64,000 nucleotides of DNA from Proteobacteria bacterium CAG:495 (GCA_000432275.1 HF995314.1:42313-106312); one strand, 5' to 3'; positions 1,632 through 51,197 are shown, counted from the first letter of the stretch. Made by a program: numbers and translations. Notes: generated by a model not told the origin, from the letters alone.

Positions 1632-1821
1632 TGTGATTAAACACTTCGCTGACAAAGGAACGATGGGCTCTGTTGACGGACTCTATTGAATGCGAAAAGC
1701 CCAAACGCTCAAGTTTTTTGACGATGCGTCCGTAATCATCATTCAGTTCGCTGATAAAACGTGTGAATTCCTGCTCGGACACGGGTTTATATTTAATATT
1801 TTGTTTCGTAGAGTTTGGCAT
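1615..1821 (-). CDS. hypothetical small protein (68 aa)
   Basis: Open ORF overlapping the 3' ends of murE (convergent) and of the GNAT gene on the same strand. No recognisable motif. Weak HicA-like resemblance (LERLGFSHS) was considered but is not convincing. Confidence 0.3.
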   Translation of the reverse strand: MPNSTKQNIKYKPVSEQEFTRFISELNDDYGRIVKKLERLGFSHSIESVNRAHRSFVSEVFNHIKTLH

Positions 1822-2440: not shown

Positions 2441-2543
2441 CGGTTCGCCTTGACAAGTTTCAATAAATAGTTTAATTATTATTATAATAAAATTTATAGT
2501 TTAATGAGAAGACACTAATTTTATATAGCAGGTATATATTAAT

Positions 2544-3425
2544 ATGATTATAGCAAAAAAAATTACAACTATTAGGAGTTTATTTTACTTACTGGCGGCG
2601 GCTCAAGAGGGCAGCTACACTAGGGCTGCGGCAAAATTGTCAACACATCAGCCGGCTCTTTCCAAAGCGATAAAAGAACTTGAAATTTATACGGGATGCA
2701 AGCTGTTAAACCGGGTTGCACACGGCGTTGTTCTCACCGAATCCGGAAAACGACTCTGCGAAAGTGCCAACAAGATTAACGAAGTTTTGCATTACATTGA
2801 CAATTTTGCTTCCGACATCCAGCAGGTTTCGGGGAGCATCACGTTGTGGACGACGGACGGCTTCGGAGGTTTTTGCCTGCCGATAAACCTTAAGGAATTT
2901 TATAAAAACCATCCGAATATCTCCATTAACATCATCTGCTCCAACGAAGTTCCCAATATAGAGAAAGGCGAAGTCGACGTCGGCGTGGTTTACGAAGAGC
3001 CGGTTTCCAGCAACTCCTGCATCATTTCGCAGCACACAATGAAATTTGGCCTGTGCGCTTCCAAAGAATTTGTAAGCCTCAACGGCATGCCCGAAAACCT
3101 TGACGATTTGAGCAAAAACTTCAGTCTTTGCGACCGAGTCAATTATCAAACGGTCTGGCCGGAATGGAAAAACATTATAAAGAAAGCCAAGAACGTTAAG
3201 GTTCAGACCAATTCATCAGCCGTTTTCGTTCGTATGACCAAAGAAGGCGTCGGAATTTCACTTCAGCCTAAAATCGTCATTAAGGCAGAAAACGATTTGG
3301 TGCCGATTCTTCCGGAATTTGAACTTTGTCATGATTTTTGGATTATCAGCCATATCGGAAACAAAGACATTCCCAAGGTCCGTTCCCTGATTGACTACAT
3401 CAAACATATCAACGAACAAATTTAA
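2544..3425 (+). CDS. LysR-family transcriptional regulator
   Basis: N-terminal LysR HTH (LAAAQEGSYTRAAAKLSTHQPALSKAIKELE) and a 293-aa substrate-binding-domain architecture. Divergent from the GNAT gene in the classic LysR arrangement. Confidence 0.85.
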   Translation: MIIAKKITTIRSLFYLLAAAQEGSYTRAAAKLSTHQPALSKAIKELEIYTGCKLLNRVAHGVVLTESGKRLCESANKINEVLHYIDNFASDIQQVSGSITLWTTDGFGGFCLPINLKEFYKNHPNISINIICSNEVPNIEKGEVDVGVVYEEPVSSNSCIISQHTMKFGLCASKEFVSLNGMPENLDDLSKNFSLCDRVNYQTVWPEWKNIIKKAKNVKVQTNSSAVFVRMTKEGVGISLQPKIVIKAENDLVPILPEFELCHDFWIISHIGNKDIPKVRSLIDYIKHINEQI

Positions 3426-5380: not shown

Positions 5381-5443
5381 TCCTGTTCAGGGTTTATACC
5401 CAATACTATACCCTCTTTTGCCAAACACGGCAACTGCAAAAAT

Positions 5444-5459
5444 TGGCACAAATATTGCA
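5444..5459 (+). promoter_or_regulatory. sigma-54 (RpoN) -24/-12 promoter, TGGCAC-N5-TTGCA, upstream of flgI
   Basis: Exact match to the TGGCAC-N5-TTGCW consensus at 5444-5459, about 44 nt upstream of the flgI start. Sigma-54 class III flagellar promoters are established in Alphaproteobacteria such as Caulobacter. Confidence 0.6.
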
Positions 5460-5502
5460 TATATTCCGTTTAGATTATTGACTTAATTTATGGGATCACA
5501 AG

Positions 5503-6630
5503 ATGATGATGCATCGAAATGCTATAAAATCTGCCGTTTTCTGCCTTATTGCGGCATTATCGATTTTTAACTGCGGGGAGGCTTTTGCCACTTCGCGGAT
5601 AAAAGATATTGCCGATTTTGAGGGCGTACGGGACAATCAGCTTATCGGTTACGGTCTGGTTGTTGGTTTGAACGGCACCGGTGACAACATCAAATCTGTC
5701 GACTTTACCAAAGAAAGTCTGATTTCAATGCTGGATAAAATCGGCATTAACGCCCGTGACGGACAGCTAAAGGCGAAAAACGTCGCCGCAGTTATGGTAA
5801 CGGCCAATCTGCCGGCGTTTGCGCGACAGGGCAGCCGCATTGATGTTATGGTCAGTGCGCTCGGCGATGCCAAAAACCTTCAGGGCGGTACTCTTCTGGC
5901 TACGCCGATGCAGGGTGCCGACGGTGAGATTTATGCCGTAGCCCAGGGACAAATTGCCGTCGGCGCGGTCAGTGCGCGCGGTACCAACGCCTCCGTCGTC
6001 AAAGGCGTTCCGACAGCCGGCAGAATAGCAAGCGGCGCCATTGTCGAGAACGAAATTCCGTTTGACCTCGACAGTCTGAAAACAATCCGCATTGCTTTGC
6101 GCAATCCCGACTTCACAACTTCCCGCCGGGTTGCCGACGCCATTAACGCCATGTTGGGAACGACAGCGGCTCAGGCTTTGGATCCGGCTACCATTTCGCT
6201 GGACATTCCCAAAAAATATCAGGGAAAAATCGTCGATTTAATGACCAGAGTGGAACAGCTGCAGGTTCAGCCTGACCAGCTGGCACGGGTCGTTATTGAC
6301 GAGAGCTCCGGCATTGTCGTTATCGGCAAGGACGTCAAAATCAACCGTCTGGCAATCGCTCAGGGAAATCTGACCATTAAGATTACGGACATTCCCTTTG
6401 TTTCCCAGCCTTTGCCTTTTTCTAACGGAACAACCGTCAGCGGCGTTACGACGGCCATAAACATCAACGAAGGCATTGACGCCAAACTGACGGTGGTCAA
6501 TACCGGCGTCAATCTACAAGAACTGGTTGACGGATTGAATGCTCTGGGCGTTACGCCGCGTGATTTAATCAGCATTTTGCAGGCGATTAAAGCCAGCGGA
6601 GCGCTGCAAGCCGAAATTGAGGTGATTTAA
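5503..6630 (+). CDS. flgI: flagellar P-ring protein FlgI
   Basis: Signal peptide followed by IADFEGVRDNQLIGYGLVVGLNGTGD. Full-length FlgI family, 375 aa. Confidence 0.93.
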   Translation: MMMHRNAIKSAVFCLIAALSIFNCGEAFATSRIKDIADFEGVRDNQLIGYGLVVGLNGTGDNIKSVDFTKESLISMLDKIGINARDGQLKAKNVAAVMVTANLPAFARQGSRIDVMVSALGDAKNLQGGTLLATPMQGADGEIYAVAQGQIAVGAVSARGTNASVVKGVPTAGRIASGAIVENEIPFDLDSLKTIRIALRNPDFTTSRRVADAINAMLGTTAAQALDPATISLDIPKKYQGKIVDLMTRVEQLQVQPDQLARVVIDESSGIVVIGKDVKINRLAIAQGNLTIKITDIPFVSQPLPFSNGTTVSGVTTAININEGIDAKLTVVNTGVNLQELVDGLNALGVTPRDLISILQAIKASGALQAEIEVI

Positions 6631-6631
6631 G

Positions 6632-6985
6632 ATGGAAGCATTAAACAGCGCAATGACCTTTGACAATGTCCTGTACGGGCTGAAAAAAGCCCCGCAGGCA
6701 AATGCGGCCGATCTGAAAAAAGAAAAGGATATGGCCAAAATAGAAAAGACGGCAGAAGACTTTGAAGCGTTTTTCATTACCAAAATGATGGAAAGCATGT
6801 TTGAAGGAATTTCCACCGACGGAATGTTCGGCGGTGGACATGCCGAAAAAATTTACCGCTCCATGCTTTTGGACGAATACGGCAAAGCAATGGCCAAAAC
6901 CGGAAGCATCGGTGTTAAAGACGAAGTTATGCGTTCTATTTTAGAAATGCAGGAAATGGAGACCAACGGATATATTCAAGGATAA
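6632..6985 (+). CDS. flgJ: flagellar rod-binding protein (FlgJ N-terminal domain type / CheL-like)
   Basis: 117-aa Rod_binding-type sequence (EAFFITKMMESMFEGI...GGHAEKIYRSMLLDEYGKAMAK) immediately after flgI, as in Alphaproteobacteria. Confidence 0.75.
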   Translation: MEALNSAMTFDNVLYGLKKAPQANAADLKKEKDMAKIEKTAEDFEAFFITKMMESMFEGISTDGMFGGGHAEKIYRSMLLDEYGKAMAKTGSIGVKDEVMRSILEMQEMETNGYIQG

Positions 6986-11676: not shown

Positions 11677-14600
11677 TTACAGGCACTTGATATATTGCCA
11701 ATTGGTCGAGGTTGAGGTTTTGCAAACCAGAGCCGTCGTATTCGGACAAGAGGACGACGAGTAGCTCGGACCGTCACATTTACAATATTTTCCGTAAGTG
11801 ACGTTGGTCTCTTTATCTACGCAGACATCACTTTCATCCAGCCCCAGAATTGATCCGCAGGATGCCGGCGTAAATGTCGGATCGCTTCCGGATACCGGTT
11901 TGGAACGTTCAGAACAGACAATGTTCCCGGAGGCGCCTGCAACCTCAGAAGTATTGATATTTTTGCAGGTTGCGTCGGTTTTGTTATAAGCTGTGGGACA
12001 ACGGCAAACCTTATAACGGGTTTCAGTCGCGCCTCCGGCAAATTCAAAGGTTTTGCCATCGCTGAGTTCATTGGGTTCCGGACAATTTTCGCGGGTATAT
12101 TTCCAGGTACTTTCAATGTCAGCTTTGGGATACAGACAGGCATATTTTGTCGGCTGGTCGCATCCGGGACTGCAAGTGCTGTAGTTTTTGGGATGACCGC
12201 ATTGTCCGACAATAGCCGAAAGACTGGCAATGCTGTATGACGAACAGTCTGCCGGAACACACGGCTCCGGTTCCGGCTCGGGACAAGAGCCTGCAACATA
12301 TTTGGTCGACTTGGAGCCGTCGGCATTAATCGACGTGCAGGAATCCGCACCGGGCTGAATATTGGAGGTACAGGTTACCGTATATGAGCTGCCGCACAGA
12401 CAAGCCTTATAGCGTGTGACAGACTCTCCGTCGACCGTCGTCGTACAGCCGTTGGATAATGTATATTTGGCCGCATTGTTGGCGTCGTCTCCGTCATCGG
12501 TTCCGTCGCATTTGTACTTATAGGCTTCACCGCAACCGCAGCTTTTGTACTTTTGAGTCTGAACCTTCTGATTTCCGACATATTTTATCTCGGTGCAAAC
12601 CTCGCTCTTATCCGTGGGAATAGCTCCGGTTTCGGCACAGGTTTTAGAATACTCGTCTCCGCAGACGCAGGATTTGTAATAAGTTACGGTATCACCATCG
12701 GCATTGGTGGTTTGGCAGGCGTCATCTTCTGACCCCGGAGACTGGCCGTTGCCGTCACAAGTTTCGGAATACTGACTGCCGCATTCGCATTTGGAATAGA
12801 CGGTCTCCCCGCTTTCTCCCGTTGCCAGCAGCGGCGTACAGGGCGTACCCTTGACGTTTTTGGCGGGACATTGCAGATAATTTGCCGGGCATTTGCATTC
12901 CTTGAAAAGTTTGCTGCCGTTTTCGTCAATGCAGAAATCCTCACCCAGAGCGTCGGCCTGATAGCCGGAGCAGACATATTTATAGCCGTTGGCCTTGCAA
13001 TCTTTCGTATCCTGACATTCGGCGTATTTGGTGGTACCGTCCGAACTGGTACAGCTGCGCCCCATGCCCACCTGCTGTTTGGTACAGGTTTTGTAAATGC
13101 TTTCTTCGTCTTCGGTACAGGTATTTTCACCGGTACAGGCACTGTAAACCGTACCTCGTTCATTATCTACGCAGGTAGTGGCATTTTCGGCCGGAGAAGT
13201 TGAACTGCAACTGGTGTAGTTGGCCGGACAACGGCATTTATACATCATCTGATTGTCTTCTCCGAGGCACGGATCATATTTTTCCTGATTAGCGGCGCAA
13301 GCCTTTTGATGCTGATCGCTGCAGGCTGCCGCAGGTTTGGTACAGGACTGATAATAGGACACGCCGTCGACAACACAGGCCGAACCAACGCCGGTTTCAC
13401 CGTCTCCGCAGACTTTGTTATAGCCGGAGGCGCAGGTACAGCTTTCAAAATAAATCTTGTCGTTTTTGGTGCAGGGGTTAACGCCAACCTGCAAGGGATC
13501 GTTACAAGTCAGGTATTCGCCTTTGATGCACTCGCTTTGGGCTTTGCAGCTTTCATAGTAGTTTTCGCCGTTCAGAGAACAGGGCTTGCCCTCGCCAACC
13601 TGATTGGAAGAACATTTGCTCCAGCCGTCAGGACACTTACAGCTTTTATAGGCATAAATTTCACCCTGGTTATCCTGACAGGGGTCTACGCCTATCTGGA
13701 AATCGCCCTTGCATTGCTCGGTGTGCTGCCAGGTACACTGGCTGGCTTCACACTGGTAGTATTTTCCGCCGCAGCCGTTAGGTTTGGTGACGCCGGTCGG
13801 CTTGGCTCCGCCGGGACAGCCGTAATAATTGTCAACCCAGTTTTCCGGCAGTTCGTCTTTTTTGCATTCGCAGGCCTGATATTTGCCGTTGCAGGGTTCG
13901 CCAACGCCGACATACCGTTCTCCGTCGCAAACCTGATTGTAGTCTTCGGAACATTCACAGTAAGCGAAGAACTTCAGGCTGGTGACGCCGGCGGGAATGG
14001 TTCCGTCATTGTTTTCCGACGTAACCTCCTGCTCGCAGCCGCCGCCGTTTAACAGTCCGGCACAATTGTAGCGGTGATATTTATAGGCGGAATGACATTT
14101 GCACTCTTTATAGTAGCGTTTGCCGTTAATAACAATGCTGCCGCCGCCGAGAATGTGTCTGACCGGGCAGTTGTCGTCGGTCCACTTATATTCGCCGGGG
14201 TTAAAGTAGCAGTTAAAGCGGCGGATGTCGGGATCGTTGCGGTCTTCACACAAACGGGCTTCGGCACCGTCGCCGAGCTTCTGGCGGCATTCGCTTTCGC
14301 TCTTGGTTACAATAACCTGATAACCGTTGGTGTTGTCACCATCCTGATAACACTTTTCAAAGCTTCCGACTTTGCACATTCCCGTCTTATATTGCTTATC
14401 CGGGCTGGGATTGCTTGAAGCGTCGTATTTTCCGGCATAGCAGTATTTTTCGCCGCTCGGTTCTACCTGCGGATAGCGGCAAACTTCGCTGTAGACGGAA
14501 GTATCGCAGCTGCATTCATAATACGAAGTCGTTTCGTTGTCCTTGGTACAGGCTATTGCCGTTGCCGCGGTTCCCAACAATGTCTGGCAGGCGCCTTCAG

Positions 14601-16557
14601 AAGTTGCCAGAACGGCGCCCTCATTACATTTGCGCGCTTTACAAGACTGATAGTAGGTTATGCCGTCCACGGAACAAGCCGGGTGTTCGGCATCTACAAC
14701 CGGAGACAGATTATCTTCGCTGTCACAGGTCAGACGGCTGTCATAGGCGGAAGGACAATAACATTTATTGCGAATGACATGGTTGTCGCTGCATTGTTCA
14801 TAAACGGCACCCTGCCCCAGCTCCCACTGGCAGGCGCGATTATCGGAGATATCGTCTTCCATAATCGTGCCGTTGGACGACCCGCTGCTCGGCAACAGGC
14901 TGCACTTGGGATAACAATACTGATACTTGGTTTTGGCATAGGTTTCGCCCTCAAGCTGGCACATAAAACCGGTGCCTTCCTTATTGGCGGCGGCACACTG
15001 GGAATCAGTCAGATAGCTGGCCGGGCAATCGCAATAATAACGAACGTTCTCTTCCAAGGCCTGTCCGTTGGCATAACAGGTTTTGACATTAATTCCCTTA
15101 ACCCCGTCAAACGAGCAGGCATCTTCCGTGTAAAACAACGGGCGGTCCGCAGGACATCCCTCTTCATAGCTTTTAAACTTGGCATCGCCGTCATAAGTAC
15201 AAACTTCTCCGACACCGACTGCGGTATCAGAAGGAACTGCAGTGTAAGTGGAAGGACATCCGCATTCATAACGAACCTGCCCGTTGGTAACGCATACGGT
15301 TGTCGTTGCAGCATCTTCGCCTACTTTCGGACAACCGTCGGCAGTATCTACAACAGGACGGGCTGCCGTGTTAATACGACAATTTTTAGCGCAGGTTTCA
15401 TAATAGGTTTTACCCTGTTCCTGAACCTTACAACTGTCTCCGCCGCCGGCTTCGCCCTCGCCGCAGACTGAAAACGTATTGGGGCATTCGCACATATATT
15501 TGATTGTGGCAGGTTCGTCAGCCATATAGCACTGGGTTGCCGTAGTTGCGGTACCGCCCACCGTCTGACATTCAGCCATACTGTCCACCAATACCATATT
15601 TTCGTCACACTGAATAGCGCTGCGATTCAGCATACAGGCGGCATATTTTTCGCCACCGTCAAAAGTACAGGCCTGACCACCGCCCAAATTTCCGGGACAA
15701 ACGGTATAGTTTTCCGGACAGCTGCAACGATAACGCAGGCTTTGATCCGGCATAACGCACAAGACGGCATTCGGGGTATCAAAACTGTTTACCTTACATT
15801 CATCAATATTGGATTTAACGCTGCCGGCGGCAATATCCTCCTGAGAACAAGGTGCCGCGCAGATGTTTTTAACAATTCCGTCATAGTTGCAGGTGCTGAC
15901 GGCCGTCTGACCCGCGGGGCAGGCTCCTTCGGTATAATCCAAATCGGTAGGACAACTGCAGCTGTAAGAAGCCTTTTCGGCAAATTCTTCGGTAAAGCAC
16001 AAACCAGAATCAACGATGTTGTCTACAATTTTGCTGCAGGCTCCGGCTTCGTTCAACAACACAAAGTCCGAAGAGCATTCGGCATCTTCACTGGAAGTGT
16101 CGTTACCCTTGAAGCTACAGCACTGAGTTGCCGCGGCAGAGCAATCAGAGACTTTTTTCTTATTGTCATCGGCACAATAATCATAGGTATAAGAAAGCGG
16201 CGTTCCCTCGCTGCACAGCCCGGTCGCCTCATCGGTGATGAAAGTTCCCAGTCCCAGACAGCTGCTGTTAATTACAGCTCCCGAACTTTTGAACTGACAG
16301 CACATCTGAGTATCATTGCCGCATTTGTTTTTAAGCATAAAACTGTCGGCACAGTAATACGAAGCGTCTTCCTGACAGGTTCCGTCGGCGTTTACCTTGA
16401 ACGGTTCGTCAATACAGTCATATTTTGAACCATCCTTTTGGCGACAGCACTCTCGCCCGATAACATAACGGTTGTAATCATCACCGCTCTCGTTATCGGC
16501 AGCCAAAGGAGTTGCTTCGACCGCCCACGGAGAAATCGGGGGACTGATGCGCGACAA
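11677..16557 (-). CDS. giant Cys-rich repeat protein, C-terminal 1,626-aa fragment (frame open upstream to 16611; listed start is TTG inside a duplication)
   Basis: About 1 in 10 residues is Cys by eye. About 20 copies of the Y-x2-C-x-C-[PG]-x2-Y-x3-C module. No signal peptide of its own. Confidence 0.7.
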   Translation of the reverse strand: MSRISPPISPWAVEATPLAADNESGDDYNRYVIGRECCRQKDGSKYDCIDEPFKVNADGTCQEDASYYCADSFMLKNKCGNDTQMCCQFKSSGAVINSSCLGLGTFITDEATGLCSEGTPLSYTYDYCADDNKKKVSDCSAAATQCCSFKGNDTSSEDAECSSDFVLLNEAGACSKIVDNIVDSGLCFTEEFAEKASYSCSCPTDLDYTEGACPAGQTAVSTCNYDGIVKNICAAPCSQEDIAAGSVKSNIDECKVNSFDTPNAVLCVMPDQSLRYRCSCPENYTVCPGNLGGGQACTFDGGEKYAACMLNRSAIQCDENMVLVDSMAECQTVGGTATTATQCYMADEPATIKYMCECPNTFSVCGEGEAGGGDSCKVQEQGKTYYETCAKNCRINTAARPVVDTADGCPKVGEDAATTTVCVTNGQVRYECGCPSTYTAVPSDTAVGVGEVCTYDGDAKFKSYEEGCPADRPLFYTEDACSFDGVKGINVKTCYANGQALEENVRYYCDCPASYLTDSQCAAANKEGTGFMCQLEGETYAKTKYQYCYPKCSLLPSSGSSNGTIMEDDISDNRACQWELGQGAVYEQCSDNHVIRNKCYCPSAYDSRLTCDSEDNLSPVVDAEHPACSVDGITYYQSCKARKCNEGAVLATSEGACQTLLGTAATAIACTKDNETTSYYECSCDTSVYSEVCRYPQVEPSGEKYCYAGKYDASSNPSPDKQYKTGMCKVGSFEKCYQDGDNTNGYQVIVTKSESECRQKLGDGAEARLCEDRNDPDIRRFNCYFNPGEYKWTDDNCPVRHILGGGSIVINGKRYYKECKCHSAYKYHRYNCAGLLNGGGCEQEVTSENNDGTIPAGVTSLKFFAYCECSEDYNQVCDGERYVGVGEPCNGKYQACECKKDELPENWVDNYYGCPGGAKPTGVTKPNGCGGKYYQCEASQCTWQHTEQCKGDFQIGVDPCQDNQGEIYAYKSCKCPDGWSKCSSNQVGEGKPCSLNGENYYESCKAQSECIKGEYLTCNDPLQVGVNPCTKNDKIYFESCTCASGYNKVCGDGETGVGSACVVDGVSYYQSCTKPAAACSDQHQKACAANQEKYDPCLGEDNQMMYKCRCPANYTSCSSTSPAENATTCVDNERGTVYSACTGENTCTEDEESIYKTCTKQQVGMGRSCTSSDGTTKYAECQDTKDCKANGYKYVCSGYQADALGEDFCIDENGSKLFKECKCPANYLQCPAKNVKGTPCTPLLATGESGETVYSKCECGSQYSETCDGNGQSPGSEDDACQTTNADGDTVTYYKSCVCGDEYSKTCAETGAIPTDKSEVCTEIKYVGNQKVQTQKYKSCGCGEAYKYKCDGTDDGDDANNAAKYTLSNGCTTTVDGESVTRYKACLCGSSYTVTCTSNIQPGADSCTSINADGSKSTKYVAGSCPEPEPEPCVPADCSSYSIASLSAIVGQCGHPKNYSTCSPGCDQPTKYACLYPKADIESTWKYTRENCPEPNELSDGKTFEFAGGATETRYKVCRCPTAYNKTDATCKNINTSEVAGASGNIVCSERSKPVSGSDPTFTPASCGSILGLDESDVCVDKETNVTYGKYCKCDGPSYSSSSCPNTTALVCKTSTSTNWQYIKCL

Positions 16558-17848
16558 CGCCCATCGGGGTACTGATGCGCGACAACGCCTGGTTCGTTTC
16601 CTCCAACTCGGTCAAACATAAATGATAACTGCCGCGGACCGTCTTATCTCCGGCACATTCAGGCAGGCAAAGCTGATATTTGACATCAAGAGTGCGGGCC
16701 GAATTGCAGGTCCGTCCTCCGGCAACATATCCGACCGGGCAATCGCTCCGGCTTACGTAAGCGTCTTCTCCGTCCGCCGTTTGCGGGCAGCCGCAGTACT
16801 GAACCAACCGGTTATCGGAAATTACGCTTCCCTCAAGGACGCAGGTGTTCAGAACATCTCCGGCCATTTCACAGCTGTCGGTGCCTTCGGTTACCCGCGA
16901 CGGGCATTTGAGCTGGCAATATTCATAACGCCCCTGAGCTTCATCAATCAATGTCGCCTGTCCGTTTCGGTATGCGCCGTTCCAAATGCAGGCGCCGTTG
17001 AGCGCCGCTACGGCATAATCCGTTCCCTTAGCCGTTTTGCAGGAGGCTTCCGTATAGGGATAAACCTCTTCGTCGCATGCATATATCGTGCGCAGCTTAC
17101 GAGTGCCGTTGTTCATATTCTCGTAGCAGGAGCCGGCAACTTTGGTTCCCGCGAGCAATGCGGAAGTAGCCGGCGTGTCGTCGCCGAGGGTTTTGTTCAG
17201 TTGCTCCGAAGTACAGGCCGCATAATCACATTTCCAGAGCAAGGCTCCGTTCAGGGAACAACTCAATGCCGTTTTGCCGTCAGCGCAGGCCGGGCGTGAC
17301 GTTTCAGTATAAGAACTGTCGCACTGAAAATACAAATAGGGCGTATCATTACTGCTGCATCGACCGGCCTCGACACCCAAATTGTTGTCTACGTTGGTAT
17401 ACTTCTGAGCAATTGCCGATATTGAGCGGGAAATGGACACGCTGTCAGAGCCGGACACGGCCTCCCCCGTTCCGATGCCGCCGGTACAGGTTTCAAGATA
17501 GGTACAGGTTCCCTTGCTGCCGTCATCACAAAGCGTGTAGCTGACCTTATCGGTATCGACGCCCAAAGCCGTGGCGCAAAGGTTTTTGGCCGCAGCCTCG
17601 CCTCCTTCGGCAGAGATGGTTACCGGGCCGCAGGCAGGGAGATTGGCCCCTTCGTATGTTGACGTATGAGAAGTGTCTTCGTCGTCGGACGTACCGGCAC
17701 TGCCTGCAGAACCGGAGCTTCCGGCATTTTTGACGCTGAAGTTGCTGTTAAACGGAGTGTCCGCAATCGGCGTTACCGCCGCCAAAGCCAGTTCCGCCGC
17801 AGCAAAAAGTGACACTAAAACGAGGAGAATCTTCTTCATTTTCAACAT
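16493..17848 (-). CDS. giant Cys-rich repeat protein, N-terminal 451-aa fragment with signal peptide
   Basis: N-terminus MLKMKKILLVLVSLFAAAELALA (Sec signal), a GSSGSAGSAG linker, and a Cys-rich body containing YCGCPQT. The C-terminus runs into the 28-bp duplication. Confidence 0.7.
   Translation of the reverse strand: MLKMKKILLVLVSLFAAAELALAAVTPIADTPFNSNFSVKNAGSSGSAGSAGTSDDEDTSHTSTYEGANLPACGPVTISAEGGEAAAKNLCATALGVDTDKVSYTLCDDGSKGTCTYLETCTGGIGTGEAVSGSDSVSISRSISAIAQKYTNVDNNLGVEAGRCSSNDTPYLYFQCDSSYTETSRPACADGKTALSCSLNGALLWKCDYAACTSEQLNKTLGDDTPATSALLAGTKVAGSCYENMNNGTRKLRTIYACDEEVYPYTEASCKTAKGTDYAVAALNGACIWNGAYRNGQATLIDEAQGRYEYCQLKCPSRVTEGTDSCEMAGDVLNTCVLEGSVISDNRLVQYCGCPQTADGEDAYVSRSDCPVGYVAGGRTCNSARTLDVKYQLCLPECAGDKTVRGSYHLCLTELEETNQALSRISTPMGVVAHQSPDFSVGGRSNSFGCR
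16534..16589. repeat. 28-bp tandem direct duplication (2 mismatches) at the junction of the two Cys-rich ORFs
   Basis: Copy at 16534-16561 is aatcgggggactgatgcgcgacaacgcc. Copy at 16562-16589 is catcggggtactgatgcgcgacaacgcc. Period 28 = 3n+1. Confidence 0.85.
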
Positions 17849-43919: not shown

Positions 43920-45851
43920 ATGGTTGCGATTAAATTACCCGATGGGTCAAGTATGAATATGGAGAGCGGTGTCAACGGCTTTGACATTGCCAATAAAATC
44001 AGTCCGAATCTCGCTAAAGCTGCTTTAGCTATCACCGTAAACGGCAAGACACAAGATTTGAGCACTCCTATCACTACCGACGCAACCGTAACAATCATTA
44101 CCGGTAAAGATAAAGAGGGCCTGCACATCATCCGTCACTCTTGCTCACACGTGATGGCCGAAGCCGTCAAAGAACTGTGGAAAGACGTTCAGGTTACCAT
44201 AGGCCCTGCTATTGAAAACGGCTTTTATTACGATTTTGCCCGCAAAGAACCGTTTACGACGGAGGATTTTGCCAAAATCGAAGAGAAAATGCACGAAATC
44301 GTTAAACGTGACGAAAAGGTCGAAAGAATTGTTATGCCGCGTAACGAAGCCATCAAGTTCTTCAAAGATATGGGAGAACATTATAAGGCCGAAATTATTG
44401 AGGATTTGCCGGAAGATGAAGTTATTTCCCTTTACAGACAGGGTGACTTTACCGATCTTTGCCGCGGTCCCCATGTTCCTTCGACCGGAAAAATCGGCGA
44501 TGCATTCAAACTGATGAAAGTTGCCGGCGCTTATTGGCGCGGCGATGCCAGCAAAGAGATGCTGCAACGCATTTATGCAACGGCCTGGGCCGACAAAAAA
44601 GATTTGAAAGCTTATCTGGAAATGTTGGAAGAAGCCGAAAAACGCGATCACCGCAAGCTCGGCAAAGAAATGGATTTGTTCCATTTTGAACCGGAATATG
44701 CCCCGGGTGCGGTTTTCTGGCATGACAAAGGCTACAAAATCTACCGCAAGCTGATTGAATATATGCGCAAACGCCAGGAAAACAACGGCTATATCGAAAT
44801 TGCAACGCCGCGCATTATGGACCGCTGCCTGTGGGAGACTTCCGGCCACTGGGATAAATACGGCGCTCACAACTATTCGGGCAAAACCGAAGACAACAAA
44901 CAATTTTGCGTTAAGCCGATGAACTGCCCGGGCGGTCTGCTGGTTTACAAGCAGGGAATTAAATCTTACCGCGACCTGCCGCTGCGTGTGGCCGAATTCG
45001 GTATGGTAAACCGTTATGAAGCTTCCGGCTCGCTCATGGGGTTGATGCGGGTGCGCGAATTTACCCAAGACGATGCTCACATCTTCTGCACCTTGGAACA
45101 AATGGAAGAAGAATGCGTCAAAACCATTAAACTGATTTTGGACATTTATAAAGATTTCGGCTTTAATGACGTTAAGATTTATCTGTCAACCCGTCCGGAG
45201 AGTGTTTACCGCATCGGCTCCGACGAGGTCTGGGACATTTCGGAAAAGGCTCTTGCCAACGCATTGGAACATAACGGTTACGAATATGAAATCAATCCGG
45301 GCGAAGGCGCATTTTACGGCCCCAAACTGGAATTTATCCTCAAAGACGCCATCGGCCGCGAATGGCAGTGCGGTACGGTTCAAATGGATATGAACCTGCC
45401 TCAGCGCTTTGACATCTCCTACATCGGCGAAGACGGCGAAAAACATCAGCCGGTTATGCTGCACCGTGCACTGTTTGGCTCTATTGAGCGCTTTCTCGGC
45501 ATTCTGATTGAAAATCATGCCGGCAAACTGCCGTTGTGGCTCTCTCCGGAACAGGTTGTGGTCGCACCGATTGTCAGCGACTTTGACGATTATGCCGAAG
45601 AAGTTGTAAGAAAACTCAAAGCTGCCGGAATTTATGCAAGAACTGATTTGCGCAATGAAAAAATCAACTACAAAATCAGAGAACATTCTGTAGCGAAAAT
45701 TCCGGTTATTGCCGTTGTCGGTGCAAAAGAAAAAGAAAACGGCACGGTTACCGTTCGCCGAATTGGCTCTGACAAACAGGAAGTTATGAAGTTGGACGAC
45801 TTTATTTCGGCATTGACAGAAGAGGCAAAAATGCCGTCACAAGACCGCTAA
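43920..45851 (+). CDS. thrS: threonine--tRNA ligase ThrS
   Basis: TGS domain N-terminus, class II aaRS motifs and a C-terminal anticodon-binding domain. 643 aa. Confidence 0.95.
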   Translation: MVAIKLPDGSSMNMESGVNGFDIANKISPNLAKAALAITVNGKTQDLSTPITTDATVTIITGKDKEGLHIIRHSCSHVMAEAVKELWKDVQVTIGPAIENGFYYDFARKEPFTTEDFAKIEEKMHEIVKRDEKVERIVMPRNEAIKFFKDMGEHYKAEIIEDLPEDEVISLYRQGDFTDLCRGPHVPSTGKIGDAFKLMKVAGAYWRGDASKEMLQRIYATAWADKKDLKAYLEMLEEAEKRDHRKLGKEMDLFHFEPEYAPGAVFWHDKGYKIYRKLIEYMRKRQENNGYIEIATPRIMDRCLWETSGHWDKYGAHNYSGKTEDNKQFCVKPMNCPGGLLVYKQGIKSYRDLPLRVAEFGMVNRYEASGSLMGLMRVREFTQDDAHIFCTLEQMEEECVKTIKLILDIYKDFGFNDVKIYLSTRPESVYRIGSDEVWDISEKALANALEHNGYEYEINPGEGAFYGPKLEFILKDAIGREWQCGTVQMDMNLPQRFDISYIGEDGEKHQPVMLHRALFGSIERFLGILIENHAGKLPLWLSPEQVVVAPIVSDFDDYAEEVVRKLKAAGIYARTDLRNEKINYKIREHSVAKIPVIAVVGAKEKENGTVTVRRIGSDKQEVMKLDDFISALTEEAKMPSQDR

Positions 45852-45872
45852 TCTGTAGCTTTTGTTTTAGAA

Positions 45873-45908
45873 AATCCCTTTCTTTTCCGAAAAGAGAGGG
45901 ATTTTTTT
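45873..45908 (+). terminator. rho-independent terminator after thrS
   Basis: 14-bp stem (one G-U) AATCCCTTTCTTTT / AAAAGAGAGGGATT followed by a T7 run. Confidence 0.75.
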
Positions 45909-46011
45909 GTCCTTAGGGGTTAAGTTATGATTGACTCGTTTTGGTCGTTTTGATATACTGAAAGAGGAACAGCGGGTTCCGGTTTTCTTTTATTATCTGA
46001 GGACGACGGCC

Positions 46012-47463
46012 ATGAGAAACAGCAAGCTTTTTACTTTTATGCTATGTATAGGCACTATTCATTCCGGAACGGTAAAAGGCTTTGTGCCTCCAGCTTCCAC
46101 CGATGATATAATTACACACACCGACCTTACGCCGGAACCCCTGGCCGCCGTCGACAACGCTTATCGCCTGGCCGCAACCTGGTGGCTTCCCGACTGGCAG
46201 GATTCTCAAAAGTCGCGCGGCAACCAATGTGAGGGCGGCGTATGCGAAGGCGGAGACCTTAAAGGCGACTGCGGTAACTATGGGTTATACCAAACCTGCC
46301 CTTCTCCAAAGCTTTCAACCGGCATTACTCATCCGACGTCAGATTTGACTTGTCAGAAGTCTTGCTACTGTCCGGCCAATTATCAGTACACTTCTTCCAA
46401 CTGTTCGGGCAACCGGGAGCCTTCCGGTGGTTCCTGTGACGGAAAATACAATGCCTGCAGTTGTAAAAAGGAATTTAAATATAACAGTTCAAACTGCAAC
46501 GGCGAAAACGAACTCGGCGGAACCTCTTGTGACGGAAATTACAATTCCTGTACGGTTCGTCCCGAATGTACGGTTTCTTCAAAATCATGCACTTACGGAT
46601 GCAAGACTTACAATTCATGCGACCGATGCACCGAATGCAAAACCAATCCCGACTGCGACGTGTCGTCAAAGTCCTGTACCTACGGCTGCGCTTCATACAA
46701 CAGTTGTTCCAAGTGTACTTCCTGCAAAGAGAATCCCGATTGCAGCGCGACGCCGGTTTCTTGTACTTACGGCTGCGCCTCAACCAACTCCTGCGGCATC
46801 TGTATCTCATGCGCGGGCAATCCGGACTGCAACGTCAGTTCCAAATCCTGCGATTACGGCTGTTCTTCTTACAACTCCTGCGACAAGTGCATTTCCTGTA
46901 AATCCTGTACGCCATACTCAGATGAGACAGGATGTTCTTACGGAAGTTACTCTTGTTCTGACGGATGCGGCGGTACCAGAACCTGTTGTTCGCCGAAACC
47001 GTCTGATCCTTGCGCATCCGTTTCCTGCGGGTCTAACGCATATTGTTCCGGCGGTTCCTGCTATTGTGATTCCGGTTATGAAGGCAATGCTTACAGCGGC
47101 TGCACCAAGACGGATCCCTGTGCCGGCATCAGCTGCCCCTCGAACAAGAGCTGCACTTACGGATGTGCTTCTTACTCCAGTGCTACATCCTGTTGTTCGT
47201 CTGTTTGTACCGCTTGTAAATCGGCACCGCAACCGGAGCCCAGTCCCTCCCCCAGCCCGAGTTCTTCTCCAGAACCGAGTTCATCGCCTGAACCTGTCGA
47301 GCCGTCCAAACCTTCTGAAGCTCAATGCCGAAAAATGTATCCGGACTATAATGAGTGTGTCTGGGGTGGCAGCGGTTGTAAGATATGTGACGACAGGTCT
47401 TTCCGTATGCCGGCTCCCTGTGATGACTATTTTTATCAAGAAGCCCGCTGTGCATCATGGTAA
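46012..47463 (+). CDS. secreted Cys-rich repeat protein (paralogous module to the giant protein) with 4 x 29-aa tandem repeats and a P/S/E-rich linker
   Basis: Start at MRNSKLFTFMLCIGTIHSG (signal-like) after GAGGA. Contains C-x-C-P-x-N-Y modules (SCYCPANYQY, ACSCKKEFKY), four NPDC-x5-SC-[TD]-YGC-x-S-[YT]-NSC-x2-C-x-SC repeats and a PQPEPSPSPSPSSSPEPSSSPEP linker. Confidence 0.7.
   Translation: MRNSKLFTFMLCIGTIHSGTVKGFVPPASTDDIITHTDLTPEPLAAVDNAYRLAATWWLPDWQDSQKSRGNQCEGGVCEGGDLKGDCGNYGLYQTCPSPKLSTGITHPTSDLTCQKSCYCPANYQYTSSNCSGNREPSGGSCDGKYNACSCKKEFKYNSSNCNGENELGGTSCDGNYNSCTVRPECTVSSKSCTYGCKTYNSCDRCTECKTNPDCDVSSKSCTYGCASYNSCSKCTSCKENPDCSATPVSCTYGCASTNSCGICISCAGNPDCNVSSKSCDYGCSSYNSCDKCISCKSCTPYSDETGCSYGSYSCSDGCGGTRTCCSPKPSDPCASVSCGSNAYCSGGSCYCDSGYEGNAYSGCTKTDPCAGISCPSNKSCTYGCASYSSATSCCSSVCTACKSAPQPEPSPSPSPSSSPEPSSSPEPVEPSKPSEAQCRKMYPDYNECVWGGSGCKICDDRSFRMPAPCDDYFYQEARCASW
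46558..46905 (+). repeat. four diverged in-frame tandem repeats of 87 bp (29-aa Cys-rich units)
   Basis: Peptide units RPECTVSSKSCTYGCKTYNSCDRCTECKT, NPDCDVSSKSCTYGCASYNSCSKCTSCKE, NPDCSATPVSCTYGCASTNSCGICISCAG and NPDCNVSSKSCDYGCSSYNSCDKCISCKS. Confidence 0.8.
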
Positions 47464-48236
47464 CGGAAAACGAGCTTATAGATAAGATTGCGGCATATAT
47501 GCAAAACAATGCAACGCTGTGCCCGCTTGTTTTTGACGAACATAATCTCGTCTATGATTATGTTCGTCAGGGACTGCTCAACATTGCCGATTTCTTTATT
47601 GAACAAACGCAAAAAGCTTTTGCTTCGCTTAAGGTTGAAGACATTGTTCTGGCCGGAGGCATTGTTTCTTATATTTACAACGACCAAACCGACATCGACC
47701 TCGGGATTGTTGTCTGCCCCGAAACCGACGGTTACAATCCAGATATGGTGCAGCAAATGTTTCGTTATGTTAACCGCGCCTTTCCCCAAAAGGGATACAG
47801 ATTTAACCTGTTTGCCAGAAACATTGATTACGGGCTGGTAGAACCATCCCACTTTTTTCATGGAAGCGGAACATACTCACTCTCCGAAAACCGCTGGCGG
47901 CAAATGCCGGTACACCGCGAGTTTACTTATTCTCCGCAAGAGTTATTCGAATACTACAAAGATTACTGTGACAAAGTACATCACTTTGTAAACACTTTAC
48001 CGAAAGTGGAAGACAAATGGCTGACTTTTGAGAGCTGCCGGAGGCTGGAGGCTCATTTGGACGCCCTTAAGAAAGACGCCCTGCTGCTCAAAGAAAACGG
48101 ACCGGAACAAGAATACGGCATGGAATACAACTGTCACAGAATCTTCAACAAATTAGGCGTTTACGGACATTTCAAATCAATTATAACCGAAGCGCATTAC
48201 CAACTCGTCAATGTTTTGGAGCTCCGCGATGAATGA
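47457..48236 (+). CDS. nucleotidyltransferase-fold protein 1 (Pol-beta superfamily; ANT(4')/Lnu-like size and motif)
   Basis: The motif G-G-I-V-S-Y-I-Y-N-D-Q-T-D-I-D fits hG[GS]-x9-13-D-h-[DE]. 259 aa. Its start overlaps the stop of the upstream Cys-rich gene (ATGGTAA). Confidence 0.65.
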   Translation: MVTENELIDKIAAYMQNNATLCPLVFDEHNLVYDYVRQGLLNIADFFIEQTQKAFASLKVEDIVLAGGIVSYIYNDQTDIDLGIVVCPETDGYNPDMVQQMFRYVNRAFPQKGYRFNLFARNIDYGLVEPSHFFHGSGTYSLSENRWRQMPVHREFTYSPQELFEYYKDYCDKVHHFVNTLPKVEDKWLTFESCRRLEAHLDALKKDALLLKENGPEQEYGMEYNCHRIFNKLGVYGHFKSIITEAHYQLVNVLELRDE

Positions 48237-48975
48237 CGACAATGACGACTTAATCCGCTTTGCCTCGGAGATTTTAACCGTACGCGACGAACTTGACCCC
48301 AGGGTGTTCAACCGGAATGGGGCCGTTCACGAACACTTGCGGCTGCGGATGCTGGACCGGGCAGACTATCTGGTTAAGGAGACGGTCGGGATGATTGACG
48401 GTCTGCTGACCGGCGACGTTGTGCTGTTAGGGTCTTCCGCCTCTTATTTTTACCGCCCGGGCTCTGACTTTGACGTCAAGGTGGAAATCATCAATCAAAA
48501 CTGCCCTTACCTGCCCAAAGACACCAACGGGATGGACAAGTTTCTGGCTTTGGCGGGAGGAGAATTCTATACCCGGAACAAATATTTTTACATCGGCAAC
48601 CGTTTTTTGGATATGAAGCTGGCGGCCTATATTATGGACGTGGCGTGGACCGGGGTTTATTCCCTGAATGAAAACAAGTGGCGGATTGAACCGAAAAACA
48701 ATCTGACGAAAGGTTTTACGGTCGACTCGCTGATAGATTACTACCACCAGCGTTGTGCGGAGATTGACGCCTTTATGGGGTCGCTGCCGCAAAAGGACGG
48801 AAAGTACGGCAAGGAAGAATGCCAGAAGATGTTTGACTATTACCGCACCCAGGTGCTGGGAAGAAACCAGACGATTGAGGACTATCTCGCCTTTAAGCTG
48901 ATTAAGGCCACCAGAAAACTTAAAAACCTCGGCGGCTTCATCTTCGCTCAACAGATGAAGATTTTTGATTTCTAG
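48229..48975 (+). CDS. nucleotidyltransferase-fold protein 2, paralog of protein 1
   Basis: LLGSSASYFYRPGSDFDVKV NTase motif. Conserved blocks shared with protein 1 (YSL-S/N-ENRWR, DYY..C..IDAFMGSLP). Start ATG at 48229 overlaps the upstream stop (ATGAATGA). Confidence 0.65.
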   Translation: MNDDNDDLIRFASEILTVRDELDPRVFNRNGAVHEHLRLRMLDRADYLVKETVGMIDGLLTGDVVLLGSSASYFYRPGSDFDVKVEIINQNCPYLPKDTNGMDKFLALAGGEFYTRNKYFYIGNRFLDMKLAAYIMDVAWTGVYSLNENKWRIEPKNNLTKGFTVDSLIDYYHQRCAEIDAFMGSLPQKDGKYGKEECQKMFDYYRTQVLGRNQTIEDYLAFKLIKATRKLKNLGGFIFAQQMKIFDF

Positions 48976-49067
48976 GCCTGTTTTTATTGCACTTTGTCAA
49001 AAACTATGATAGTGGCTTGATATCAAAATTATAGATATCTGAATTATTAATTTAAACTTCAAAAAAA

Positions 49068-49835
49068 ATGAAAACTTTTAGATTTAGAAAAACAACAACG
49101 TCTGAGATTGCTTCAAAGATTATGTCTGTCAAACGGCGCAAGGGCCGTTATGAACTGAAACTGGAAAACGGCAAAACCTATTTTCTGCCTCAGGAAACAT
49201 TGCCCAAAGACGTTGCTCCCGCATACGGAGACATTTTTGCTCTGGGGTTCTGTATGGATATGATTACGATAATCCGTCTTAACGACCGTATCGTTTTTGA
49301 ACTCACTCCGGAACAGCTTGTCGAAAAACTCGAGAACAACTGTAAATTACTGGCAAACATTATCCGCAAGCAGGAAGAAAAGGCAATTTCGCTGCAAAAT
49401 CAAATTGAAATCAGAAAACTGCCGGCCTTGTTGCAATTGTGGCTCGCGGAAGCGCGTCTGGCATACCTCGGCGCGTATGCGGAAAAAGAACTTCGCCTGG
49501 TTGAAACCTGCAAAAAAGCGTTTGTCTTGTACAGGTATTTTCAAAATCTAAATAAAACATCGTTTTCGCGCGAAGATGACGACTTTATCAATCTAATCAA
49601 AACGCCCAACAACGAAATTTGGCCGAATCCGGGCAATGAGAGTTATCCTCTGGTCTGCGAAGCCGCAGACTTGGCAAACAGACTGCTGGCTGACGCTTTT
49701 GACAACGGAATCGATATTTTCGACCGGAACGATTGTCTGCGACGGAAACAACATTCTGCCACTCTCGGTTACCGGACCGAAGAGATGAAAAAACATCTTG
49801 CGACGAAGGAAATTCAGACAGCCGAACGACTTTAA
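49068..49835 (+). CDS. hypothetical protein (255 aa), possible distant member of a local paralog family
   Basis: Uninterrupted ORF after an AT-rich intergenic region. The helical KLPALLQLWLAEARLAYLG segment resembles the LPAIF(Q/R)HR block of the two downstream genes. Confidence 0.55.
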   Translation: MKTFRFRKTTTSEIASKIMSVKRRKGRYELKLENGKTYFLPQETLPKDVAPAYGDIFALGFCMDMITIIRLNDRIVFELTPEQLVEKLENNCKLLANIIRKQEEKAISLQNQIEIRKLPALLQLWLAEARLAYLGAYAEKELRLVETCKKAFVLYRYFQNLNKTSFSREDDDFINLIKTPNNEIWPNPGNESYPLVCEAADLANRLLADAFDNGIDIFDRNDCLRRKQHSATLGYRTEEMKKHLATKEIQTAERL

Positions 49836-49974
49836 TCCGACGTTTGAAATCCAATTATCAAAAAATGTGAAAGAGCCGTTTCAAAACGGCTCTTTTTTTA
49901 TTGCTTTTAGCCGAGGATATGATGTAATTGTAATAAATTCACATATTATAAATTCACTATTATATTAAAATCTT

Positions 49975-50715
49975 ATGATAACATCCAAAATTACATCCGT
50001 TATTAAAAAGGCGGAACGACTTAACACCTCGTTTAACCTTTTGCTGACTTGCGGTATCAGCCTCGAGTTAAGCTTTTTAGATGCAAAAGACTTTCAACCG
50101 AAAGCGGGAATGCGTGCAGAAGCGACATTTTTAAATTACATTCCGATGATGCTGACGATAAACGGAAACGTTATGTTCTCGCGCAGCAAAACCGACGTTT
50201 TTTATGAGATGAGGCATTTGCTTTCTGCTCTGGAAACAGAAATTCAAGCCGAAAAAATAGAACAAGGGCGACTGGAATTTCAGGAGAGGAAGTCTCATCT
50301 GCCGGCCATTTTTCAGCACCGGATACTGCTGTTGCAATCTGCAATCGGCAGCCGGTATACCCAAGAGGAATGGAAAGACGAGCTTTGCGGAATGGAGCTG
50401 GCACAGAAAATTCATACCGACACCGTGTTTCAATCTAAACGGGCACCTTTGAGCTTTTATGCAAAAAGCGCCATAATCCGCAGATATCCGGAAGCGGCGG
50501 CCTATCACAGCGGCGTGGTGGAATATGCCATCCAGTTGTCCAACACGCTTTCCGAAGACGAAGCATCGGGAATTAAAACAGATGATTTTGAGCAGATAAA
50601 AGAGAAGACTTCTTTCAGCAGAACCTTGCGACAGGAAACGCTGAAGGGAGACGTTCCTTCAATCTCAGACATTATCCGTTATCACCAATCTCTGATTTAT
50701 CAGAACAAATCGTAA
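49975..50715 (+). CDS. hypothetical protein (246 aa), paralog of 50724..51197
   Basis: Shares HLPAIFQHR...YPEAAAY blocks with the next gene. Confidence 0.55.
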   Translation: MITSKITSVIKKAERLNTSFNLLLTCGISLELSFLDAKDFQPKAGMRAEATFLNYIPMMLTINGNVMFSRSKTDVFYEMRHLLSALETEIQAEKIEQGRLEFQERKSHLPAIFQHRILLLQSAIGSRYTQEEWKDELCGMELAQKIHTDTVFQSKRAPLSFYAKSAIIRRYPEAAAYHSGVVEYAIQLSNTLSEDEASGIKTDDFEQIKEKTSFSRTLRQETLKGDVPSISDIIRYHQSLIYQNKS

Positions 50716-50723
50716 TCTGCCGT

Positions 50724-51197
50724 ATGGAAACAAGTATCTCCTGCGGATTCAACAAGATTATCCGCGAAAAGATAGCGGCCTACCGGCGGGAAGAACACCA
50801 ACTGAAACAGCGTTTGTCCGCCCTTCCCGCCATTTTCAGGCACAGATTTAAATCTTGCGAAATGCACATCAAGGGATTTAACTATTTTTTTGCAGCGACG
50901 GAAATCGCCTGTTGCGAGTTGGCTCTGGCATTGTACAAAACGGTGCCGGCAGAAGCATATTCCCGGATAGGGGACAAAGAGCTGCAAAAATTCGGCGGTT
51001 GTCTGAATACGGAACAGCGTTGGTATGCCCTGAGCCTGGCCAATGCCCTGTCTGCCGACGGAATTACCAAACCGGCGCTGCCGCATTTGGAGAAGTTTCA
51101 TGTTATGAGGCTTCACCCTTTGGGAACGTACGAGAGTTATGCTGACATGATTGTGCGTATTTTCCGTTATCGGAAAAGTTCTGCCTTTGCGGCGTAA
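50724..51197 (+). CDS. hypothetical protein (157 aa), short paralog of 49975..50715
   Basis: ALPAIFRHR...VPAEAY blocks. Starts 9 nt after the preceding stop. Confidence 0.55.
   Translation: METSISCGFNKIIREKIAAYRREEHQLKQRLSALPAIFRHRFKSCEMHIKGFNYFFAATEIACCELALALYKTVPAEAYSRIGDKELQKFGGCLNTEQRWYALSLANALSADGITKPALPHLEKFHVMRLHPLGTYESYADMIVRIFRYRKSSAFAA

Follow-up and report, generated by a model that had tools for sequence, protein, structure and literature searches.

Cytoplasmic glycosyltransferases such as HMW1C and Aah modify adhesins that are encoded alongside them, and ANT(4′) is a dimer with shared active sites. In the type VII toxin–antitoxin system MntA/HepT, MntA modifies its operon partner HepT by an AMPylation-type transfer (PMC7641770). 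Here we analyze a stretch of 64,000 nucleotides (the window) from "Proteobacteria bacterium CAG:495", a human-gut metagenomic species (GCA_000432275.1, HF995314.1:42313-106312), in which positions 46012-48975 of the plus strand contain three translationally coupled genes. Gene 1 encodes a cysteine-rich (Cys-rich) protein that is predicted to be exported; NT1 and NT2, which follow it, encode two paralogous proteins of the nucleotidyltransferase (NTase) fold. We found the cassette to be genuine and conserved; the metal-binding triad is intact in both enzymes, and NT1-type and NT2-type proteins co-occur in other genomes, where they are sometimes fused. As far as could be found, it is an undescribed association of an unnamed NTase family with Cys-rich exported proteins, themselves unannotated, of uncultured Alphaproteobacteria that are abundant in the gut.

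The theme of MntA/HepT, an NTase encoded with the protein acted on, recalls that of the cassette, but no HEPN domain was found in the window genes or in the partner loci. Whereas the MNT of MNT-HEPN modules measures about 100–140 residues, the NTase-fold proteins described here (hereafter NTs) have 248–259 residues, a large helical C-terminal domain and 2–7 paralogues per locus, and their similarity to MNT is limited to the GS...DxD segment. HepT is a cytoplasmic RNase; the partner encoded here is predicted to be a Sec-exported Cys-rich protein. In its logic the cassette may resemble the pairs HMW1C/HMW1, Aah/AIDA-I and EtpC/EtpA, where an enzyme that has no signal peptide modifies a Sec-exported adhesin from its own operon ahead of translocation, although HMW1C, Aah and EtpC are glycosyltransferases, not NTases, and have no homology to NT1 or NT2. 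The enzymes ANT(4′), ANT(6), AAD(9) and Lnu are alike in size (about 250 residues) and in combining an NTase with a helical domain, but no resistance model matched NT1 or NT2, and the genomic context of the cassette is unrelated to resistance. To the same protein family as NT1 and NT2 belong phrog_36119 and NTase domains of Lak megaphages, of the T4-like cyanophages S-CRM01 (g125) and DSL-LC03 and of uncultured Caudovirales, tblastn matches included. These phage copies are single, often lie within multi-domain proteins and never follow a Cys-rich gene, whereas the NTs of the cassette are paired or arrayed.

Other described systems were considered and rejected. A CD-NTase/CBASS system was discarded because neither a cGAS/DncV-like family match nor an adjacent Cap effector gene nor a PADLOC match was found. 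AbiEii/MenT (DUF1814) was discarded as there was no match to PF08843, to Pfam in general or to PADLOC, and as the upstream gene encodes a Cys-rich exported protein and not an AbiEi-type antitoxin. A polymorphic toxin/immunity cassette would show the reverse of the pattern seen here, in which the repeats vary, the C-terminal domain is conserved and the downstream genes encode conserved enzymes of 250 residues.

The NTase family in question occurs in phages (Lak megaphages, T4-like cyanophages) and in bacteria, and has neither a name nor a Pfam, NCBIfam or defence-system model nor a solved structure. Through the cassette it gains a strongly conserved genomic partner for the first time and, for this reason, a substrate that can be put to the test. 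In metagenomes of the human gut, CAG:495 and the RF32-type Alphaproteobacteria related to it are widespread (clusters of 469–534 member sequences; one related species on at least 1,000 contigs), and none of them has ever been grown in culture; the cassette draws attention to their unannotated Cys-rich surface proteins, a family that varies between strains. Should the NTs modify the Cys-rich protein, they would represent a novel way of modifying surface proteins; should they not, the strict linkage would still call for an explanation.

Linkage of the cysteine-rich gene to NTase arrays

Gene 1 (46012..47463, +) begins at ATG 46012, with a Shine-Dalgarno sequence GAGGA 8 nt before it, and ends with TAA at 47461-47463. 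Its stop codon overlaps the start of NT1 (47457..48236, +) in the sequence ATGGTAA, and the stop codon of NT1 (TGA, 48234-48236) is overlapped by the start of NT2 (48229..48975, +) in the sequence ATGAATGA. The start of NT2 was set at 48229, and not at ATG 48211, because the N-termini of orthologues support the former. The coupled unit with overlapping stop and start codons that the earlier note had described is therefore upheld.

For a survey of other genomes we used a degenerate DNA pattern for D[IV]xLxG[GS]xx[ST]YxYxxx[ST]DxD, which matches 51 of the 166 family representatives and has a specificity of 99% on viral contigs and of 96% on metagenome contigs. Among viral contigs, 99 of 100 pattern matches were true members of the NT family, all of them single-copy; among metagenome contigs the corresponding figure was 115 of 120. 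The metagenome scan yielded 18 loci with at least two NT domains. Fifteen of these have at least 300 nt of upstream sequence, and a Cys-rich open reading frame (ORF) lies directly upstream in 14; the fifteenth is locus L122. By comparison, such an ORF precedes the NT in only 1 of 87 single-NT loci (L170, a truncated array), and in the background 16 of 743 ORFs reach at least 7% Cys. The difference between 14/15 and 1/87 indicates that the linkage is specific to paralogue arrays. Locus L122, which at first sight shows an NT pair with no Cys-rich gene, was rejected as a counterexample: it is a chimeric contig of 2.2 kb whose similarity to the window runs from residue 2 of NT1 to residue 132 of NT2. 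An N-terminal extension of 129 residues in protein P0003 was likewise rejected as a fusion, being an out-of-frame reading across the Cys-rich gene.

Many of the scanned loci come from the same few species, so that the count that matters is that of distinct systems. Taken together, a Cys-rich exported protein is encoded directly upstream of an NTase array in 15 distinct systems, which differ in their flanking genes. Every closer homologue that could be placed has the same gene arrangement in other surroundings. Downstream of der, a Cys-rich protein of 590 residues is followed by NT1 and NT2 (L001/L006); one of 613 residues precedes an NT pair between an ABC-F gene and lepA (L007), and one of at least 554 residues does so with ymdB/zapA nearby (L002). 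Three Cys-rich genes and an NT pair are found between hslVU and addAB (L004), and two Cys-rich genes and a pair in L010. More distant representatives (L012, L015, L016, L018, L241 and L242) agree with this: one Cys-rich protein and a pair are present in both L015 and L016, and a Cys-rich tail with a pair in L018. In L241 a Cys-rich tail is followed by an NT1–NT2 fusion. Longer arrays consist of a Cys-rich tail and three NTs with bamE/plsX nearby (L012), two Cys-containing exported proteins and three NTs with gltX nearby (L242), a Cys-rich protein of 589 residues and at least five NT paralogues (L011, array at 381-6636), and a Cys-rich protein of 543 residues followed by six NT genes with hflKC/degP/holC nearby (L198, 298-7323), which encode seven NT domains as the last gene is a fused double one.

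In bacteria, arrays of 2–7 NT paralogues have so far been found in uncultured Alphaproteobacteria only. All assignable systems belong to this group, including that of an activated-sludge metagenome-assembled genome of 35% GC and that of a very common gut species (the L198 type). Across systems the identity of NT1 falls to about 30% with the linkage still kept. The distance from the stop codon of the Cys-rich gene to the start of NT1 ranges from −7 to +63 nt in other systems, and NT1 and NT2 mostly overlap. Judging from these sequence comparisons, the linkage has survived extensive genome rearrangement and the divergence of NT1 to about 30% identity, and the three genes of the cassette very probably share one job. 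No Cys-rich neighbour was found for any of the single-copy phage relatives. The neighbourhood conservation on which the earlier note had made its proposal depend is thus borne out, in differing surroundings and for the arrays only.

Some of these loci have features of their own. The Cys-rich protein of the L198 type ends in a Gly-rich linker and ...WGSSYDDSMGFCDVWSSYC, and this variant of the cassette is also present in L138, L215, L127 and L150. In L242, the ORF directly upstream of the three NTs (2825-3904) combines Cys modules of the form C..P.C..LGY......C......CPFD..K..C with a phage tail Collar domain (PF07484), which suggests that the Cys-rich partners may be receptor-binding or adhesin-like proteins. 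Locus L134 (4128-11612), from the activated-sludge alphaproteobacterium, carries a Cys-rich protein and an NT pair and encodes, close by, further exported Cys-containing proteins, of 1,049 residues with 3.9% Cys and of 384 residues with 7.3% Cys, and proteins of this kind may cluster there.

Architecture of the three proteins

The product of gene 1 has 483 residues, 65 of which are Cys (13.5%), and by its ORF and translation it is predicted to be a modular exported protein. From the N-terminus it comprises a signal-peptide-like segment, two modules of 31 residues, four repeats of 29 residues, an EGF-like stretch, a Pro/Ser linker and a C-terminal domain. The signal-like start (46012..46068, +), read by eye as MRNSK / LFTFMLCIGTI / HSG (MRNSKLFTFMLCIGTIHSG), has comparable counterparts in the partners of L001, L004, L007, L010, L011, L015, L016 and L242. 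The two C-x-C-P-x-x-Y-x-Y modules (CYCPANYQY..., CSCKKEFKY...; residues 118–179) lie at 46363..46548 (+) and were assessed by motif counts against shuffles. They are followed by the four 29-residue repeats, C-x5-6-C-x5-6-C-x-YGC-x4-5-C-x2-C (residues 180–295; 46549..46896, +). These are repeats of the protein sequence only: Tandem Repeats Finder detected no DNA-level array over them, its sole call being an 18-nt repeat inside the linker. The Pro/Ser-rich linker, PEPSPSPS (PEPSPSPSPSSSPEPSSSPEPVEPSKP; residues 408–434), is encoded at 47233..47313 (+), and P/S or G/S linkers likewise precede the C-terminal domain in L001, L007, L012, L018 and L198. All the elements that the earlier note had listed for this protein, from the signal-like start to the Cys-rich C-terminal knot and including the module of a giant ORF elsewhere in the window, are present in the sequence.

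The C-terminal domain, or knot (SEAQCRKMY...CASW; 49 residues with six Cys, residues 435–483; 47314..47460, +), was delimited from two protein alignments (A3 and A5). It is common to the partners of the closer relatives, where it follows a P/S- or G/S-rich linker, and its positions C5, Y9, C36, C46 and S48 (domain numbering) are invariant across nine sequences from seven species. A profile of the domain gave no match in an index of 5.8 billion proteins, with which it had no 5-mer words in common. Strains of CAG:495 differ by indels of 45-residue modules in the Cys-rich gene, giving proteins of 483, 522 or 528 residues; the inserts correspond to DPCAG...SSATSCCS.VC..C plus a P/S linker (gene 1 of the window compared with L154 819-2486 and L162 7299-8948). 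The NT genes are 91–100% identical across strains of the same species that differ in this way. On the alignments, the Cys-rich partner is a variable body with a conserved tail among the closer systems. No Pfam, NCBIfam, PHROG or PADLOC family was found for the gene 1 protein, and ten further Cys-rich partners had no match in Pfam, NCBIfam or PADLOC either. A W-L-P-D-[WY] motif is observed near the N-terminus of several partners and, in those with a complete N-terminus, stands a short way behind the signal peptide: ATWWLPDWQD in gene 1 (residues 82–92, about 46250-46290 of the window), IQWLPDYAGDW in L002 (3-1667, N-terminally truncated) and KVYWLPDYLQ in L242 (1949-2785).

NT1 (259 residues) and NT2 (248 residues) are 27% identical over 181 residues (E=6e-20) and hence paralogues. 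The Pol-beta nucleotidyltransferase signature hG[GS]x9-13DxD and the third Asp are kept in both, as GG (67–68)...D79-I-D81 with D124 in NT1, and as GS (68–69)...D80-F-D82 with D128 in NT2 (own numbering). An alignment of 15 NT1 and NT2 orthologues shows no variation at G67, D79, D81 or D124 in either paralogue group. An AlphaFold model of NT1 was built from this 15-sequence alignment, since with the single sequence the predicted local distance difference test score (pLDDT) was only 40. With the alignment, pLDDT reached 91.5 and the predicted template-modelling score 0.83; the alpha/beta NTase core fold is present, and the third carboxylate, D124 (in RxxD), lies on the model strand 121–128. When the model was compared with the PDB by Foldseek, almost all of the top 50 matches were NTase-fold proteins, every one of them with E >1e-3 and a template-modelling (TM) score <0.3. 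Predicted phage structures (BFVD) match it over its full length, with E=5e-17 to 1e-13 and TM 0.70–0.75.

At the sequence level, the phage family phrog_36119 matches NT1 with E=3.6e-8 (residues 10–204 on positions 14–203 of a profile of 247) and NT2 with E=1.4e-4. The matches of a profile of the NT family to PDB sequences are marginal and confined to the catalytic motif: GLD-2 (E=0.077), the minimal NTase 2rff (E=0.003), DrrA (E=0.013) and MNT (E=0.06). The poly(A)-polymerase palm PF22600 matches NT2 with E=0.05 and 14.1 bits, below its cut-off of 27. Neither NT1 nor NT2 matches a Pfam, NCBIfam or PADLOC model, and both are annotated as "hypothetical protein" at NCBI. A full HMMER search places 3,516 clusters at 50% identity in the family, 2,212 of them at E <=1e-10; some distant members exceed the threshold of PF01909. 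From sequence and model, the NTase fold of NT1 and NT2 can be taken as established, and membership of the characterized families ANT, Lnu, CD-NTase, AbiEii, MNT or non-canonical poly(A) polymerase (ncPAP) cannot. The paralogy, fold and intact catalytic residues that the earlier note had assigned to the two proteins were confirmed. For the specific relationship to ANT(4′), Lnu, AbiEii, CD-NTase or GlnE that it had also considered, no curated model gave a match, and the structural likeness is at superfamily level only.

By their residues, both enzymes look active. No signal peptide and no hydrophobic or membrane segment was found in NT1 or NT2, and both look cytoplasmic. Their isoelectric points (pI) are 5.2 and 6.0, respectively, the latter near neutral, with a family median of 5.8.

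Possible functions of the cassette

Our best guess for the function of the cassette, and a tentative one, is that NT1 and NT2 modify their Cys-rich partner. The product of gene 1 would be a Sec-exported, disulfide-rich, modular adhesin-like protein. NT1 and NT2 would form a hetero-oligomer that transfers nucleoside monophosphate, in an AMPylation-type reaction and possibly as an oligomer, onto a residue with a hydroxyl group in the C-terminal region of the partner, and the transfer would take place while this region is still cytoplasmic, before or during Sec export. Modification would have to precede export because the partner leaves the cytoplasm and the NTases lack a signal peptide. A hetero-oligomer, sometimes of one catalytic and one degenerate subunit, is plausible on three grounds: NT1-type and NT2-type proteins are equally frequent among the representatives (85 vs 81); fused double-domain proteins occur, such as P0027, which has the order NT1–NT2 and stands after a Cys-rich tail; and in distant systems the first paralogue may have lost the triad beside a neighbour that keeps it (D-N-N in L015, D-S-H in L017, E-S-H in L018, S-D-N in L011). 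In favour of modification there are also the translational coupling, the linkage kept in changed surroundings, the intact catalytic residues of both enzymes, the invariant Tyr and Ser beside invariant Cys in the C-terminal domain of the partner, and the presence of the protein AMPylators DrrA and MNT among the weak profile matches. It is doubtful whether one may go further and see here an unrecognised post-translational pathway, in which disulfide-rich surface proteins would receive one or several nucleotides on their C-terminal region from hetero-oligomeric, phage-related NTases ahead of export; common but uncultured Alphaproteobacteria of the human gut would then display nucleotide-tagged adhesins, and in arrays of as many as seven paralogues either the tag or the choice of acceptor would be diversified.

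Several observations weigh against modification of the partner. With signal-less NTs, the partner would meet the enzymes only before translocation. Conservation of its C-terminal domain does not extend to the most distant systems (L015, L016, L198, L011), so that a single universal acceptor site is not evident. The number of NT paralogues (2–7) does not track that of Cys-rich genes (1–3), and in L017, the single real exception to the linkage, the gene that precedes the NT pair is flavodoxin-like. The phage relatives function without a Cys-rich partner, and in P0142 the NT domain is fused to an Rv2179c-like 3′-5′ exoribonuclease. In addition, RNA-tailing enzymes (GLD-2, TENT5, TUT4/7, Tailor) or CD-NTases occur among the nearest neighbours in sequence and fold as frequently as protein AMPylators do.

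The last two of these points fit an action of the NT pair on the 3′ ends of RNA or on free nucleotides, by ncPAP-like tailing or as a synthase of signal or defence nucleotides, with an indirect link to the Cys-rich protein through shared regulation, control of the operon mRNA or a surface-receptor plus phage-defence island. Of the PDB sequences, that of the poly(A) polymerase GLD-2 is taken as the one that best matches the family profile, the matches to the MTPAP-like palm PF22600 point the same way in spite of being sub-threshold, and phage members lie amid replication or early genes or inside large multi-domain proteins. We nevertheless regard this explanation as rather unlikely. All matches to GLD-2, TENT5/FAM46, TUT4/7 and MTPAP are below the family thresholds; the acidic NT1 and near-neutral NT2 would be unusual for RNA-binding tailing enzymes; no PAP-associated domain (PF03828), effector gene, PADLOC match or conserved RNA-related neighbour was found; and there would be no explanation of why the arrays are linked to a Cys-rich exported protein when the single-copy genes are not. 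In another explanation, the NT-like proteins would bind the Cys-rich protein with no modification of it, either as cytoplasmic export chaperones or holdases, like tail-fibre chaperones, or by conferring immunity to a secreted toxin of the Cys-knot type, like the proteins of polymorphic toxin-immunity arrays. A row of 2–7 paralogues directly after a secreted repeat protein does resemble an immunity-gene array, catalytic residues are lost in some paralogues, the partner in L242 has the Collar domain, and translational coupling suggests stoichiometric production. This is, however, quite improbable when one considers that G[GS]...DxD...D is invariant in both paralogues of the window and of all closer relatives, which points to catalysis, that the C-terminal domain is conserved and not polymorphic, and that these are proteins of 250 residues from a widespread enzyme family with members that stand alone in phages and Legionella as well.

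Very unlikely, in our opinion, is that the pair transfers a phospho-linked group in the manner of LicD or fukutin, nucleotidylates a small molecule or, as the earlier note had proposed as its alternative, constitutes a hitch-hiking ANT/Lnu-type resistance or toxin module. An N-terminal NTase domain with a helical C-terminal one, about 250 residues in total, resembles kanamycin nucleotidyltransferase, and ANT(4′), ANT(6), AAD(9) and ANT(3″)(9) are among the Foldseek matches in the PDB. These matches, however, have E >=4e-3 and TM of about 0.2, a likeness of fold at superfamily level only; no curated model was matched in NCBIfam, resistance models included, or in Pfam; and no glycan or CDP-alcohol genes are conserved nearby. 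Hitch-hiking in particular is unlikely because the linkage to the Cys-rich gene is strictly conserved in the 15 systems.

Single-copy relatives and other features of the window

The NT domain of phages is often embedded in proteins of 900–1,400 residues (viral contigs L025, L024, L041, L085 and L092). Its partner domains are DUF5824, DUF5662 plus S-adenosylmethionine (SAM) lyase, and BspA-type leucine-rich repeats, and fusions in BFVD are annotated as amidoligase and LETM1-like. A different conserved pair is seen in the phage-like loci L128 (8803-11257), L131, L177, L178, L206, L216 and L220, where a protein of about 250–450 residues ending in ...NNPEPY...G.CCDACN.KFVIPARL is directly followed by a single NT of about 386–534 residues; beyond weak NTase matches, no Pfam family was found for this pair. 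In Legionella septentrionalis, the single-copy NT P0131 (L243, 6001-6810), encoded between a Rieske protein gene and greA, has a clear N-terminal signal peptide and an intact GS...DxD...E. It is an exported member of the family and possibly a host-directed effector.

Upstream, the unit is limited by the intrinsic terminator of thrS (product CCZ31163.1), an 18-bp hairpin at 45869..45907 (+) followed by a U-run; its stability of -20 kcal/mol (z=-4.2) was attained by 0 of 200 shuffles. Between it and gene 1 there is a promoter-like site, TTGACT-17-TGnTATACT (45931..45959, +), about 50 nt before the gene, which matches the consensus at 10 of 12 positions and has an extended -10 TG; it is proposed from the consensus match alone. 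Downstream, an AT-rich gap of 92 nt and 24% GC (48976..49067) marks where the conserved cassette ends. No hairpin convincing as a terminator lies in this gap, and Rfam detected no RNA element in 45700-49300. The terminator and the gap had both been pointed out in the earlier note as setting the unit apart. Right after the cassette, 49068-51197 (+) contains three ORFs of 255, 246 and 157 residues. None of them has a match in Pfam, NCBIfam, PHROGs or PADLOC, and comparison of the first two with one another revealed no significant similarity. The three ORFs were rejected as members of the cassette as they are not found beside it in other species.

The module of gene 1 recurs in the giant ORF 11677-16557 (-), which encodes 1,626 residues with 9.6% Cys and nine C-x-C-P-x-x-Y modules. 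The motif C-x-C-[P..]-x-x-[YF] is present in three copies in gene 1 and in nine in the giant ORF, as compared with 0.24 and 0.35, respectively, expected from composition, an enrichment of more than 10-fold in both. Direct comparison of the two proteins by BLAST gave a marginal similarity only (E=4e-4), and the giant ORF has neither the six-Cys C-terminal domain nor an NTase neighbour. It is directly preceded and overlapped by ORF 16493-17848 (-), which has a signal peptide, 6% Cys and zero copies of the module motif; the two may be one frameshift-split gene or two adjacent genes.

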